Source: Escherichia coli
GTDB taxonomy: Bacteria > Pseudomonadota > Gammaproteobacteria > Enterobacterales > Enterobacteriaceae
Length of the DNA: 64,000 bases
Strand: one strand, 5' to 3'
NCBI RefSeq assembly: GCF_030013595.1
Contig: NZ_CP122770.1
Position numbers and translations under genes: made by a program. This document shows, one piece after another, positions 35,496 through 48,816 of this stretch (position 1 is its first letter; the number at the start of each line of letters is the position of its first letter). Under the pieces are notes generated by a model. The model ran no database searches, was not told the origin of the DNA, and saw only the letters and a list, made by a program, of their open reading frames with translations.

Positions 35496-37067
35496 TTACT
35501 GAGAGGTCAGATCAACTTTCCAGGGCAACAGATCGCGTACCCGGTTTGCCGGCCAATCCTGGATATGCTCAATGACGTAACGCAGCCATTTTTCTGGTTC
35601 CACATTGTTCAGACGGCATGTGCCGATCAGCGAGTACAACACCGCCGCATGTTCGCCACCGCTGTCGGAACCCGCGAAGAGCCAGTTTTTCCGGCCTACG
35701 GCCACTCCCCGTAAGGCGTTCTCTGCGATGTTGTTGTCGATTTCCACCCAGCCATTACTGCAGTACACGTTCAGGGCCTCCCACTGTTTCAGCAGGTATG
35801 CGAACGCTTTTGCCGTATCCGAGTGACGCGACAGTGTTTTCATCTGTTCCTGTATCCAGTCATACAGTGACTGCATCAGTGGAGCCGCTCTGGCTTTTCT
35901 TGCTGCCAGACGCTGTTCTGCTGAACATCCCCGGACTTCTGCCTCGATGACATACAGTTCACCGATACGCTGCAGGGCTTCCGTGGTGATGTCGGTTGGC
36001 ACTCTTGCATGCACATCGTGGATTTTTCTCCGGGCATGGGCCATACACGCGGCTTCCGTTATTCTGCCGGATTCGTATAACGCCCGGTAACCACCGTAAG
36101 CATCTGCCTGAAGCACACCGCTGTAACCGGCCAGGTGATTCTGTGGATGGATACCTTTCCGGTCCGGGCTGTACGCGAACCAGACCGCCGGGGGCATCTG
36201 TGAACCGGCGTTACGGTCATCACGGACATAGACCCACAGCCGGGCAGTTCTTGTTTTACCACTGCCCGGCTCCTGGACCGGAACGGGGATATCATCCGCA
36301 TGGACTTTACCGGGCATCAGCACATACTGGCGCAGCACGTCATACAGCGGCTCCAGCAGTTCAGCAACGGCACCGGTCCAGCGCCCCAGCGTGGCGCGGC
36401 TCAGTTCCACGCCCTGACGAAGGTATATTTCTGACTGGCGGTATAACGGCAGATGGTCTGCATACTTCCCGGTGACGATATGAGCCAGAAGCCCCGCTCC
36501 GGCATAACTGCGTGCAATGGGTTTTGAAGGTACTGGTGCCTGCACGATATGGTCGCACCGGCAACAGGCCAGTTTCGGACGTTGTGTTTCGATAACCTTA
36601 AAAGCGCTGCTGATAAGCTCCAGTTGCTCTGACACATCACACCCCAGAGGACTGAGGTCACCACCACAGGCCGGGCAGCATTCCTCTTCCGGCCGGATGA
36701 CCCGGGTTTCACGGGGAAGTGAGGCCGGTAACGGCTTACGGGCTGAAGACTGGCGCAGGGCGGATGGCAGTACCGGGTCATATTGCTCATCCAGCGTTTC
36801 CGCCATTTCTTCCTGAAGTGCGCTGATTCGCTCCTGGGCTTCCTGTATCTGCCGTTCGGTTTTAGCGCGAAGTTTTTCTGAGCTTTTACCGAACTGCATG
36901 CGCTGCAGTTTCGCAACCAGCGCCTTCAGCCGGTTGATTTCGGAAGCATAAGCCGCCACCCGCTGTGAGAGCAGGCGGTTGTATTTCGCCATCTGGCGGA
37001 TGGTGTCCTGTTGCGTCTGCAACAGTGCCCGCAGGCGGGCATTCTCATGAGCAAGTGAGGTGTCCAT
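35496..37067 (-). CDS. IS66-family transposase TnpC
   Basis: 523 aa; coiled-coil N-terminus, CxxC zinc motifs, DDE region. Confidence 0.9.
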
Positions 37068-44693: not shown

Positions 44694-44728
44694 CAGGATC
44701 ACCCGGTCAGTGCACAGAGGGCGGGTGG

Positions 44729-44800
44729 CGAAGACTCCGGTGACTGCTCCCCGCCCGCATTGGGCGAGGATTCTCGGCGGTTCTTCGCTGACTGCACCAT
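44729..44800. repeat. Third copy of hairpin motif with flanks matching both ends of the tnpB locus
   Basis: gtgactgctccccgcccgcattgggcgaggattctcggcggttcttcgctga: left part matches 13701-13717, right part matches 15007-15042. Confidence 0.6.
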
Positions 44801-44888
44801 ACCTCCCAGACAAGACTGTTCGGAATATATCGCTCTTACTGGGGGAGCAGTAAACTAAAAATGAAAAGTATTATTCCTGACTGGAATT

Positions 44889-45170
44889 TTATGGCCACTT
44901 CTGTGCGGTATGCAACACGCGCAGGACATACACTTTTCCCCACTGGCTGTCGACCTCATAAACCAGAACAAAATGGGGGTGAATAACCAGTTCCCGGGTT
45001 CCTTCCACACGACCGTTGCGACCTTTATACGGCTGCCCGGCCAGGCTGCTGGCTGAATAACCAATCCGTTCGTCCAGTTCAATGGCGGCCATCAGGTTCT
45101 GCTCCGCAATGTACTCACGAATGCGCTTCCTGTCCTGGCTGGCCAGCATGGTCCAGAATATCTCCATCAT
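44889..45170 (-). CDS. RelE/ParE-family toxin
   Basis: 93-aa ORF overlapping upstream antitoxin ORF by 4 nt. Confidence 0.7.
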   Translation of the reverse strand: MMEIFWTMLASQDRKRIREYIAEQNLMAAIELDERIGYSASSLAGQPYKGRNGRVEGTRELVIHPHFVLVYEVDSQWGKVYVLRVLHTAQKWP

Positions 45171-45436
45171 TTATCGGAAACCTTCCTGCTCATTTCATCC
45201 CGCCATGCAGCGGCAGAAGATTCGACCATGTCATGGGGAAGCACATCGCCGCGCTCGAGTTGCTGACGTCCTGCCGCAACCTGGTCACGGAACCAGGTAT
45301 TATGCTGCCGTTCAACGGTCTGGCGCATAAAATCCCGAATTAACTGAGAGCCATTACGGTCCATGCTTTTTGCAGCGGCCATAAAAGCATCCTTCAGTTC
45401 AGCGTCGATTCTTAAACTCATATTAACCTGTGCCAT
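45167..45436 (-). CDS. RelB/DinJ-family antitoxin
   Basis: 89 aa, RHH-like N-terminus (MAQVNMSLRIDAELKDAFMAAAK). Confidence 0.7.
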   Translation of the reverse strand: MAQVNMSLRIDAELKDAFMAAAKSMDRNGSQLIRDFMRQTVERQHNTWFRDQVAAGRQQLERGDVLPHDMVESSAAAWRDEMSRKVSDK

Positions 45437-45799
45437 TTATCACCTCGTCATTACTACGTATATACACAGTATATAACGATTCAGATATCGTCACCAGGAT
45501 ATGCCGCGCCAGCGGCATGGAAGGCGGCACGCTGTGGTTACATGTGATACCGGAGTAAAACCGCCGAAGCCCGGCGTCAGCCGGTACTGATTGATAGATT
45601 TCACCTTACCCATCCCCAGCCCTGCTAAGCCATACCCGCTTTCAGCCATGAGACAGTTTCTGTGCGCGGTCGGAGTGGTCCCGACGAGGGTTTACCCGAA
45701 GTCGGGGCGTATCTCCGCGTTAGCGGGCCGTGAGGGCCGCTTACGAGCGTGTACTGAGGACTTCCAGCCAGAAGACTGGCAGCGATGACAATGTAGTTA

Positions 45800-46340
45800 C
45801 AACATTCATAATTAAAAGCGATGTTGTTCCCGCCCTTCGGGCGGGGGCGGCCTCGCTTTTCAGTTATGAGGGGTGGGCACGGTGCTGCGTTTGTGTGGTG
45901 TTTTTTATTCCTGATGTTTTCGCGGTGGTTTCAGAACGGTGAGGTTCGGGGCCCGCGCGTTAGCGTGGGAGGTGCTTTTAGATTCTGAGCGGCGCGGCCT
46001 TGGCCGCTGCAAGCGAAGGCCTCTTTGTGTTTGTTCACGGTGGTTTCAGAGATAAAGACTTTCCCTGCGGCGAAGCAACGCAGGGGATTAAATAATGGGG
46101 TTAAGACTATATTGCAGGTTTGCTGTTTCAGGTTTGCAGCTTCTTAAAGTTTTTTGTTTGCGGATTTATGTGGATAACTGAAACAACGTGGCCACGTTCT
46201 GATGACTGATGCGTGGTTTTATGGGCAGATATGCCCCTCTGAGGGGATTTAAGGTGATTACTGCGGATTTTGGGCTGAGCGGAACCAGCGCCGAAAGCCC
46301 CGGAGGGGCTGGTGATGATTCAGTGCTGAGGGAATGGTGC
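45800..46340. other. Candidate replication origin region downstream of repZ
   Basis: Position as in IncI/IncB replicons; GC hairpins cccgcccttcgggcggg and cggcgcggccttggccgctg; no coding signal. Confidence 0.4.
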
Positions 46341-46343
46341 TGT

Positions 46344-47375
46344 CTAGTGCGGCGGTGGGGCAGCCAGCGTCAGTTCAAGCTGACGCAACTCCCTGATGGC
46401 CAGTCGCTTCAGATGGTCATCGGAACAAAAATAGGCTTCATCCGGCGGCAGACGCTTCCTGAGATATTCTGCCATCTCATGAATCTGCTGGTCGGCAGGC
46501 AGTTTCTTCAGGCGTCTGGCGCGCTTACTGGCTGCTGCTTTCGCACGACGGTGTTTCAGCGCATCCTGACTGCGCTGCAGATACCAGCGTTTTCTGGCCG
46601 CATGTACGGAGATATCTTCATCCTCACGCAGAACACCTTCCCGAATGAGCTGCTGGCGGATTTCACTTTCACGCAGTCGTTTCTGCTGCTGTTCGTGAAG
46701 TTTTACCATGTCGACGCCCAGCATCTGCCAGCCTGCCGGTGTTATCCAGACGTAACGAGGCAGACGCTGGCGGGTTTCACGGTCCCACAGGGTTTCATCT
46801 GAAACACCCAGCACACCAAAACGTACCTGTTCGGCCAGCAAACGGGAAAGGCGGGAGACCGTCACTTCCAGTTCCGGAATAACCTTCCCCTTGCTGTCTT
46901 TCGGGCTGATTTCTCTGGCCAGACGGGAAACACTCATGCCTACGGTATGTGTGCCCGCATCACTGAAGCTGACCAGAACCGGCCAGACGGCATCGAGGAG
47001 GCGTTGTTTTTCCGGACGGAAAGCATATTTGCGACCGGCATACGTTCGTTTCTGCACGTAAAAAGGATGCAGAGACATGTGCATGCGCAGGCTCTGCTCG
47101 CCGGTCACCGGGTCCTTTTTCACCAGACGGTTGTAGGCGTGCCCGAGCTGCCCGCTCAGCGCCTTATAGCGCTCAGGACGATACCAGGACGGATTTTCGC
47201 ATTTGGGTTTGGTGGAGTGCTCACCACGACGACGCTTCGTGCGCTTCCTTTCCGGTTCAACCAGGAAAGTGGTCGCCCTTCCCGCTTCATAGTCTTCCCA
47301 GAAACGGATCTGCTCTTCGGGTGCTAACTGACTCCAGTGTACTGCGTTATATGGAGTATTCTTCAGACCTGCCAC
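46344..47375 (-). CDS. repZ: RepZ replication initiator (IncI1/IncB RepA family)
   Basis: 343 aa from GTG at 47375 lying within end of repY; track ORF extends 15 codons upstream. Confidence 0.85.
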   Translation of the reverse strand: MAGLKNTPYNAVHWSQLAPEEQIRFWEDYEAGRATTFLVEPERKRTKRRRGEHSTKPKCENPSWYRPERYKALSGQLGHAYNRLVKKDPVTGEQSLRMHMSLHPFYVQKRTYAGRKYAFRPEKQRLLDAVWPVLVSFSDAGTHTVGMSVSRLAREISPKDSKGKVIPELEVTVSRLSRLLAEQVRFGVLGVSDETLWDRETRQRLPRYVWITPAGWQMLGVDMVKLHEQQQKRLRESEIRQQLIREGVLREDEDISVHAARKRWYLQRSQDALKHRRAKAAASKRARRLKKLPADQQIHEMAEYLRKRLPPDEAYFCSDDHLKRLAIRELRQLELTLAAPPPH

Positions 47376-47452
47376 AAGCTGTCGCTTATGGCGGAGCGAT
47401 TGTGCCGTGTATTTATACACTGCACAGGGTTGAATCTCTGGTACGGTTTCAT
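47363..47452 (-). CDS. repY: RepY leader peptide (29 codons) coupled to repZ translation
   Basis: ATG at 47452, stop at 47363 overlapping repZ start; MKPYQRFNPVQCINTRHNRSAISDSLWQV. Confidence 0.65.
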   Translation of the reverse strand: MKPYQRFNPVQCINTRHNRSAISDSLWQV

Positions 47453-47464
47453 TATACTTTACCC

Positions 47465-47536
47465 GTATTCTGTGAGGCCCCCACTATCTTTCGTCGTTCC
47501 GCCAAGTTCGTAAGAAAGATAGTGGGGGTTTTCCTT
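47465..47536 (+). ncRNA. inc: Inc antisense RNA (copy-number control), approximate
   Basis: 14-bp perfect stem (47476-47491 / 47515-47528), loop with CCGCCAA (mRNA loop UUGGCGG), T-rich tail on plus strand. Confidence 0.55.
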
Positions 47537-47815
47537 TTATGGCTTCCGGAACATCTTCAGTCTTCTGACTTACTGCCCGTACATGCCATCTCTCCTGAAT
47601 GCCTTATGGCGCATTCTGCCGTCCGGCTTTCGCCGGTTTGCTCCACAGAGTGCCACTCTCTGCACAGCTAATAACAGCCGAAATATACCCGCTTTACGTT
47701 AATTTGAAAAGCATTACAACGATCTCTTCTCTTCCAGTGCCTCCTCACTGATACCTCTAATAAGTTAATCTTGACCTACGTCAAAAAAATAAAATCTATT
47801 TTTAAAAGCAGATTT

Positions 47816-47973
47816 TTCTGCTTTAGATCTTTCTTTTGGATTAAAAGATCGACTTTTGTCCTACTCACGATCATTTATCTTACAACCGATCTACCTAACA
47901 GAATAATATTCTGTTTTAATGCAATTAAACGATCTAAATAACCTTTAAAAAATCATTTTGTAGATCATTCGAT
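47816..47973. promoter_or_regulatory. Cluster of seven GATC sites in AT-rich region between replicon and traA
   Basis: GATC at 47816, 47837, 47869, 47888, 47931, 47963, 47970. Confidence 0.5.
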
Positions 47974-48527
47974 CGTAAATAGAATAATTCTTAGATGATA
48001 AAACCATTTGTTACACAACCCGCCAATTGTGTAACAACAGCCTCTACAAGAGCATATTTGTTCATATGTTCGTCAGAACTGCGGATTGTCTGGACGAGGG
48101 TCAGACACCGTTTCGTGCATATGGACCAGCATGTTCGAACGCCACAAAGCAGAAGCATCATGCCTGGATCGCTTCGGCGCGGAGCGTTAAGTTTTGACGC
48201 TTTTTTGTATGTTTTTTAAGCTGTTAGTTGACTCGGTGCGTTATACTAAGTACCCTTTACTGGTCACAGGCAAAACTGTGATCGGGCGTAGGAACCCGCG
48301 TAGTCATCGTCGGCGCAGAAGTTAATTTCTTCATTTGGCGTCGTTTTTTGCCATACCATAAAGACAGGAACTTGTATTTCTTGTCGTCATCTATGGTAGC
48401 TCAGGCGGGGCAGGCATTAGCCTGGCCGGTTTCCGATGACGCCGGTATTCCTACCCCCGTCTGGGCTATCACCAATGAGCGTAGGAACTCGGTGATAGCG
48501 TTTTTAGTTGTCATCGGAGACCTTTGC

Positions 48528-48816
48528 TATGTCACCTCAACTGATACAGAAACTCCCGGCCATCACTCTGTTGGAAGGCATGTTTCCCGAGCTATCAACA
48601 AACCAGCTTAAAGTCTGCGTTTTTTACGCAATGGGTGTTCCTTACGACGCCATTGCTCAGAACTGTCGGCTTTCTCCCGAAACGGTACGAACCTACCTGA
48701 AGCGAAGCCTGAAGAATTTAAATCTGGAAGGATATGATGCACTTCGCTCTGCTGTGCTGATGCGAACTTTCGTTTTCATGATTAGCAATACAGCTAAAGA
48801 AAACGAAAAAATGTGA
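48528..48816 (+). CDS. traA: TraA-like LuxR/GerE-type HTH regulator
   Basis: ATG at 48528 with GGAGA RBS; C-terminal HTH (LSTNQLKVCVFYAMGVPYDAIAQNCRLSPETVRTYLKRSLKNL). Confidence 0.55.

Follow-up and report, generated by a model that had tools for sequence, protein, structure and literature searches.

A conserved cluster of Dam sites in helical phase with a candidate Lrp palindrome between the rep and transfer-regulator genes of I-complex plasmids

Plasmids of the IncI1, IncK, IncB/O and IncI2 groups are leading carriers of ESBL, AmpC and mcr-1 genes, and of what controls their copy number and their competence for transfer, the antisense Inc RNA, TraB/TraC, Hft and Fnr are the known pieces. 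One such plasmid has, in the DNA that separates its replication gene from its transfer regulators, a dense group of GATC tetramers, the targets of Dam, and the question raised by this locus is what keeps these sites in place, which proteins read them and which of the two neighbours they serve. This element goes unmentioned in the searchable literature on I-complex genetics, two saturating transposon studies among it, and no IncI1 methylome evidence for protected or non-methylated GATCs was found there.

A GATC cluster around a palindrome between repZ and traA

The window (the whole 64-kb stretch of DNA analysed here) is the backbone of an IncI1/Igamma plasmid, and the segment tested is 100% identical to the Salmonella plasmid pPNCS007087.3. 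The original prediction held that seven GATC sites fall within about 160 bp between the replicon control region and traA, at a density far above chance for AT-rich DNA, and the number, the density and the placement were all borne out (Table 1). The seven sites span 149 bp of DNA with 28% GC, at neighbour spacings of 21, 22, 19, 43, 32 and 8 bp. Local base composition predicts 0.37 GATCs for this stretch, and when 139 sites were placed at random, at least seven fell within 160 bp in 2 of 5000 trials. Counting GATCs over the whole window, the check that accompanied the prediction, makes the cluster stand out more: 139 were observed against 257 +/- 15 expected from dinucleotide shuffles, a roughly two-fold depletion that is plasmid-wide, and the next-densest 160-bp windows in the 64 kb hold three GATCs at most. 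GATC is absent across 44701-47306, 2.6 kb that comprise the origin and most of repZ, and a GATC-free rep/ori stretch is likewise present in the IncB/O and IncK relatives; CTAG occurs three times in the window.

Table 1. Positions of the features around the GATC cluster, numbered along the window
Feature	Position	Strand	Remarks
repZ	47375 to 46344	(-)	
repZ pseudoknot leader	47388-47536	(-)	Rfam
Antisense Inc RNA	47443-47536	(+)	CopA-like Rfam match, under gathering score
Predicted rep (RepZ mRNA) promoter	47682..47710	(-)	TTTTCA-17-TATATT; conserved in IncB/O/K
Eighth GATC	47721..47724		ACGATC context; 11 bp upstream of predicted rep -35
FNR/CRP-type palindrome TTGACCTACGTCAA	47771..47784		T-run before it; unique in window
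G+C-poor hairpin AAAGCAGATTTTTCTGCTTT	47805..47824		Terminator-like on both strands; rep-proximal cluster edge
GATC cluster, seven Dam targets	47826..47974		Starts at 47826, 47847, 47869, 47888, 47931, 47963, 47971
ACGATC motif	47867..47872; 47929-47934; 47719-47724; 47971-47976	(+); (+); (+); (-)	
Perfect Lrp consensus match CAGAATATTATTCTG	47899..47913	(-)	15/15 to YAGHAWATTWTDCTR; 13/13 to AGAATwwwATTCT
Perfect 11-bp inverted repeat	48008..48037		TTGTTACACAA N8 TTGTGTAACAA; terminator-like (-); tra-side module boundary
a1/b1 target of C4 RNA	48250-48302	(+)	
C4 antisense RNA, P1-type (RF01695)	48389-48476	(+)	77.5 bits vs gathering score 45
traA	48529-48816		Right of cluster, followed by NusG-like traB and traC

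Four of the eight local GATCs (those of the cluster and one close to the predicted rep promoter, the latter not kept in the B/O/K relatives) stand in an ACGATC context, against 13 of the 131 elsewhere in the window (Fisher p=0.008). Sites 47869 and 47971 are 102 bp apart in inverted orientation, and sites 47826 and 47931 are 105 bp apart. As a repeat search of the cluster turned up short similarities centred on GATC but no longer repeat unit, iterons and a centromere were rejected as readings of it.

The cluster encircles a 19-bp palindrome (47897-47915) whose core matches the Lrp consensus at every position, and this is the only zero-mismatch occurrence of that consensus in the 64-kb window. 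Both forms of the E. coli Lrp consensus to which it was compared are quoted in PMC5554404. By sequence match, the core of the palindrome is a candidate Lrp site, with the reservation that an AT-rich palindrome can fit an AT-rich consensus and not be bound in vivo. Comparison with the consensus sequences of LexA, ArgR, Fur and OxyR led to the rejection of these four readings, as the spacing or the orientation of the half-sites is wrong; Lrp alone fits perfectly. A single site matching the Lrp consensus at 11 or more of 15 positions (47958-47972) overlaps the flanking GATCs, and the others lie outside such sites. Weak Lrp-like sites in the flanks do not exceed those of the most AT-rich control windows, and a periodic array of them at 31-bp steps found no support in the scan. 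The G+C-poor hairpin at the rep-proximal edge is also a 13/15 Lrp-like match, 93 bp from the main palindrome.

The module made up of palindrome and cluster lies 115-265 bp upstream of the predicted rep promoter, and the genes annotated within +/-3 kb of it are yacA, repA, traA, NusG-family traB, traC and pilI. On its other side, the inverted repeat that bounds it is kept in IncI1, K2/Z and pESI plasmids, and in IncI1 this places a terminator-like hairpin between the module and the traA promoter. Each arm of the repeat is also a one-mismatch DnaA box (TGTTACACA). The cluster had been described as upstream of traA, which is right for the order of the genes but not for their adjacency, as the traA promoter and a cassette with a C4-type RNA lie 270-420 bp away. 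This cassette, which the original prediction did not include, is the Hft region of the literature and stands between the cluster and traA. Prediction of sigma-70 promoters on the tra-regulator side gave signals too weak to be assigned in such AT-rich DNA.

Two functions already located in this region were considered for the cluster. The RepZ-dependent origin lies downstream of repZ at about 46090-46180 (-), where a DnaA box (exact, at 46169-46177 (-)), GCAAAC repeats and TCTTAA are found and GATC is not, and an oriV downstream of repA has been described for the I-complex (PMC10286972). Coordinates of plasmid pESBL (x) were converted to window coordinates (w) as w = 83900 - x, a mapping checked on traA, hp1 and repZ. 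Hft (NC_018659 35394-35663, 270 bp) thereby falls on 48237-48506, exactly the C4 cassette with its a1/b1 target, and the cluster corresponds to pESBL 35926-36074. With the origin downstream of repZ and Hft mapped to the C4 cassette, the cluster is neither the RepZ origin nor Hft.

Conservation and helical phasing of the module

The upstream regions of RepZ relatives, chosen over a range of 99% to 33% identity, were compared. The palindrome with four to seven GATCs was found upstream of rep in IncI1, Igamma, K, K2/Z, B/O, I2 and pESI plasmids and in a diverged L006-type lineage, which comprises plasmids of Salmonella, Citrobacter, Hafnia and Apirhabdus (RepA about 72% in L006). Rep and a transfer-regulator gene are divergent in every lineage, the regulator being mostly of the NusG family and of the CaiF/GrlA family in IncI2, and the spacer between them holds 6-11 GATCs where 2-4 are expected, an excess that is significant in nearly every lineage examined. 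The locus of each relative contains one match to the Lrp consensus with no more than one mismatch, always in the middle of its GATCs, and the palindrome variants differ mostly at degenerate positions of the consensus. The order of the elements is the same throughout, with two or three GATCs before the palindrome and three or four after it, even though the lineages are no longer joined by blastn.

Conservation within lineages is concentrated in the tetramer. None of the six GATCs varies in the L006-type family, whose members are 67-92% identical, and the spacing of the six is the same in all of them; invariance is thereby 6/6 for GATC as against 16% of tetramers, and variable columns number 0/24 in GATCs and 62/136 elsewhere (p=2e-6). 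The corresponding counts are 0/28 and 16/147 for IncI1/K2Z/pESI (p=0.05) and 1/8 and 32/78 for B/O/K. Beyond the tetramer, the sequences that flank the GATCs differ both within and between lineages. Neither palindrome nor cluster is present in replicons with a CopB, RepB or RepC gene upstream of rep (IncFII types, IncL/M, pYV), nor in a hybrid replicon that joins an I-type RepA body to an upstream gene of the CopB/RepB/RepC type; the module occupies the slot that copB/repC genes hold in these related replicons.

The seven GATCs of the cluster keep phase with one another (period 10.4-10.5 bp; R=0.86 and p=0.002 at 10.5 bp), and GATCs are in phase at this period in two lineages whose spacings differ. 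They are also in register with the palindrome: across four architectures, in which the actual positions differ, the GATC centres lie at half-integer helical turns from its dyad (V=0.75, P about 8e-5, 11 distinct positions, best period 10.4 bp), and among 33 tetramers GATC ranks first for phase-locking to the dyad. We consider it very probable that the module is a real cis-element, under selection and acting at the level of duplex DNA. To the Dam/SeqA-responsive look ascribed to the cluster at the outset, the comparative data have added purifying selection on the GATC tetramers and their placement on one face of the helix, both to be expected of an element that responds to Dam or SeqA.

A possible Lrp/Dam switch and its rivals

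A tetramer that is kept alone while its flanks diverge, on a plasmid that otherwise avoids it, points to readers of GATC itself, that is Dam, SeqA or MutH. SeqA is reported to bind hemimethylated GATCs that are clustered on one helix face and a few helical turns apart (PMC2691817). Phase-locking of these tetramers to a perfect Lrp match points to an Lrp-nucleated complex on the face where the major grooves and methyl groups of the GATCs are exposed. From tetramer-only conservation together with phase-locking to the dyad, we propose that the module may be a Dam-sensitive, Lrp-nucleated nucleoprotein switch, also bound by SeqA when hemimethylated, and placed in the control region common to the divergent rep and tra-regulator promoters of I-complex plasmids. 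This proposal is tentative, with a probability that we put at roughly 0.45.

In such a switch, host Lrp would nucleate at the consensus palindrome and then spread or wrap over the flanking DNA with its seven GATCs, whose major grooves, and with them the N6-methyl groups, would face the protein if Lrp contacts the palindrome in the manner of a typical helix-turn-helix dimer. Full methylation should disfavour the Lrp complex. Hemimethylation, whether it follows vegetative replication or the synthesis of the complementary strand upon conjugative entry, would open a time window in which Lrp competes with SeqA, can assemble and may block re-methylation, and the outcome would be an altered activity of nearby promoters, that of rep, which lies at a constant distance of about 200 bp, and/or that of the tra-regulator operon. 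The sequences show the elements, their conservation, their phasing and the consensus match, and from these we infer occupancy by Lrp and SeqA, sensitivity to methylation and the output promoter. If the proposal is true, the module adds to rep/tra control a further layer, coupled to the host and responsive to replication and nutrition, and is a candidate for transitory derepression after conjugative entry. Unlikely, in our estimate, is a bistable version of the switch resembling pap, in which Lrp would lock alternative, heritable methylation patterns of the four to seven GATCs, and replication or entry by conjugation would reset them. Were it to hold, the pattern would decide in which host cells, or from which copies of the plasmid, the transfer regulators are expressed and/or the rep promoter fires, it would provide a molecular basis for transient high-frequency transfer in newly infected IncI hosts, and nutritional state (through Lrp), replication and transfer would be linked across the whole I-complex.

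The distances between the module and its neighbours bear on which promoter it serves. From the centre of the palindrome, the rep ATG is 531-536 bp away in I1, B/O, K and I2, the rep -10 is 219 bp away in I1, B/O and K, and the FNR/CRP-type palindrome (TTGAY-N4-nTCA) is 120-122 bp away in I1, B/O, K and the L006-type lineage, whereas the divergent regulator gene lies at anything from 167 to 623 bp. As the distances are constant on the rep side and variable on the tra side, the module is anchored architecturally to the rep side. Against this anchoring, the FNR-like site, all seven GATCs and the palindrome are found beside traABC in pESI-type plasmids, where the IncI1 rep is lost. Judging by analogy with pap, both divergent promoters could be served. 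In the pESI-type megaplasmids of Salmonella Infantis (CP113991.1, 2950-3000), an apparent Tn1721-type inverted repeat joins the IncI1 DNA at window position 47731; these plasmids keep the C4 cassette and traABC at 99.5% identity, without the IncI1 rep promoter and repZ.

Published genetics touches the module at several points. Expression of pil and transfer of pESI depend on Fnr (PMC5013300), and because pESI keeps the FNR-like site, 47771-47784 is a candidate direct target of Fnr, for which no convincing promoter geometry was seen around it. The same palindrome is FNR-like (TTGA..TCAA) in I1, B/O and K and CRP-like (GTGA..TCAC) in Hafnia. Against the proposed switch, the published pESI study found that deletion of lrp produced no significant change in pilV mRNA (in LB under microaerobic conditions, given there as data not shown), and that deletions of fnr and traB did change it. 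Also against it, in TnSeq of pESBL insertions inside Hft alone were enriched for transfer and those in the flanking DNA with the cluster were not, nor was the cluster region reported as needed for maintenance; in TraDIS of an IncB/O/K/Z plasmid, the replicon and parAB were the sole maintenance units reported and the module region was not discussed. The placement of most flanking GATCs outside Lrp-like sites and the remoteness of the traA promoter in IncI1, beyond a terminator-like hairpin, weigh in the same direction.

The main rival to an Lrp/Dam switch is sequestration by SeqA alone, whereby the phased GATCs, hemimethylated after replication of the plasmid, would recruit a SeqA filament. The filament would transiently cover the region of the rep promoter or change its shape and so impose an eclipse, much as oriC and the dnaA promoter are sequestered, and the palindrome would bind another factor or be incidental. 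Placement on one helix face and spacings that are mostly three turns or less (21, 22, 19, 32 and 8 bp) fit the preference of SeqA, and the constant spacing from the rep ATG and promoter, set against the variable one from the tra regulator, the copB/repC position of the module and the lack of GATC in rep and ori themselves all count in its favour. SeqA alone, however, leaves both the phase-locking to the dyad and the co-conserved Lrp consensus unexplained; moreover, the cluster lies at a distance from the rep promoter and not over it, and pESI retains the module without the IncI1 rep. To our knowledge, the eclipse of the related R1 replicon is independent of Dam and SeqA, which also counts against this reading, and we consider it unlikely. 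An improbable explanation is that GATC is kept as part of the recognition motif of a protein that has nothing to do with Dam, be it a regulator encoded by the plasmid (TraB/TraC, for instance) or a further host factor. A transfer-regulator gene always adjoins the module, NusG-like in most lineages and CaiF/GrlA-like in IncI2, and some sites share partial contexts (ACGATC and GATCTTTT), but the invariance of the tetramer amid variable flanks calls for readers with 4-bp specificity, such as Dam, SeqA and MutH, and GATC is otherwise avoided on the plasmid.

We attach very little probability to a replication-related element of single-stranded or unwinding DNA, be it a secondary origin, oriC-like 13-mers with GATC, a hairpin of the ssi/Frpo type or a structured RNA. 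One site does resemble the oriC 13-mer (GATCTTTCTTTTG), and the IncI1 sequence folds better than its shuffles (z -5.5 as rep-sense RNA, z -3.4 for the + strand as DNA), also with a null that holds the GATCs and the palindrome fixed (z -3.6). Against this, the RepZ origin and its sequence elements are elsewhere, no DnaA box with up to one mismatch occurs inside the cluster, no Rfam family matches it, and the module persists without rep in pESI. Under the same fixed null the folding score falls from its IncI1 value to -2.1 in K2/Z, -1.3 in B/O, -1.1 in I2 and about 0 in the L006-type lineage, and as the excess is not conserved outside IncI1 a structured RNA or ssDNA element was rejected. Inverted repeats specific to IncI1 (47822-47987) pair the GATC arms 47971/47869, 47963/47931 and 47847/47826; this pairing is absent from other lineages, and a single strand folded in this manner would hold duplex GATCs. 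Least credible of all is a chance accumulation or a neutral relic without function: the DNA is AT-rich and intergenic and two transposon screens reported no phenotype, but the density, the invariance, the phasing and the recurrence across lineages unconnected by blastn all speak against it.

Relation to known systems and to the Hft locus

The closest likeness of the proposed Lrp/Dam switch is to pap, where Lrp acts with two GATCs 102 bp apart (GATC1028/GATC1130) between divergent promoters. Both loci have Lrp site(s), here a candidate by sequence match, together with Dam GATCs between divergent promoters, and the 102-bp and 105-bp pairs of the cluster, as well as the ACGATC and CGATCTTTT contexts in the module, recall the pap arrangement. 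Unlike pap, the module has seven GATCs (four to seven across lineages) in place of two, and one central consensus Lrp site in place of two triplets of weak sites; most of its GATCs are not inside consensus-like Lrp sites, and it is flanked by a plasmid initiator and transfer regulators and not by fimbrial genes. No product of the PapI/FaeA or PapB type is annotated within +/-3 kb.

A second parallel is traJ of the Salmonella virulence plasmid, which is repressed by Dam. Work of Camacho and Casadesus from 2002 and 2005 reportedly established a part for Lrp in the control of pSLT traJ, with Lrp sites in its upstream activating sequence of which one contains a GATC, and the strand-specific detail of the effect of hemimethylation. 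The context of a transfer regulator, the combination of Lrp with Dam and a hemimethylated state after replication that is proposed to be permissive are common to both, and this is the logic by which the original prediction coupled transfer-gene expression to hemimethylation. The pSLT system, however, is F-like and of the MPF_F family, shares no sequence homology with the module and has a single GATC where a phased cluster is found here, and the IncI1 module is anchored to rep and parted from the tra regulators by the C4/Hft cassette.

The SeqA clusters of oriC and of the dnaA promoter likewise present dense GATCs on the same face near the promoter of an initiator gene, and SeqA should bind the module when it is hemimethylated. 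The module differs from them in lying away from the origin, which is free of GATC, and upstream of its promoter, and in having in addition a palindrome that fits the Lrp consensus. The pac site of phage P1, in which seven GATC hexamers (TGATCA/G) are arranged 4 + 3 over about 160 bp within the terminase gene and cleavage is controlled by Dam, also came into consideration, as the module too has seven GATCs within about 150 bp, four on one side of a central segment and three on the other, and a P1-type C4 RNA 400 bp away. Nevertheless, TGATC is found at 2 of the 7 module sites on either strand, and there is no terminase gene or packaging context but a non-coding stretch of plasmid backbone conserved with rep; as the hexamers do not match, a pac-like site was rejected. 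By its sequence, the logic of the module would be akin to that of known Lrp/Dam and SeqA systems and its anatomy appears to be new, combining one central Lrp consensus, four to seven phase-locked GATCs, a rep/tra-regulator context and the lack of a PapI-type partner nearby.

The assignment of Hft to the C4 cassette offers a reading of earlier transfer phenotypes. In pESBL and R64, transposon insertions or the drd11 substitutions in Hft raise transfer about 20-fold, and the enrichment of insertions in pESBL is bimodal, at the two ends of Hft, which fits the layout of a target followed by an antisense RNA. Neither of the pESBL papers mentions C4, and their authors only suspected an sRNA/Hfq involvement. 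The superspreader phenotype could be the loss of an antisense brake on traA similar to P1 immI. Insertion in Hft also doubles the copy number, with repZ mRNA and Hft-repZ transcripts unchanged (PMC4288162). The DNA spanned by this coupling, between the tra-regulatory region and replication, includes the GATC/Lrp module.

In IncB/O, IncK and L006-type plasmids, a NusG-family traB homologue adjoins the module and there is neither traA nor a C4 cassette, so that the IncI1 segment from about 48060 to 49237 looks inserted. This segment (C4 RNA, the hp1/ash ORF and traA) has the appearance of an insertion of phage-type immunity circuitry, and the order rep, module, traB looks like the older arrangement, which would have preceded that insertion in IncI1.

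On the far side of repZ, about 300 bp beyond the RepZ origin, we noticed a core, ATGTTGTAAC at 45796-45805 (-) within tatgAATGTTGTAACTACa, which we take to be Tus/Ter-like, as by inspection it agrees at about 14 of 16 positions with the Ter consensus. Ter sites adjoin the origins of R1 and R100 in a comparable manner.
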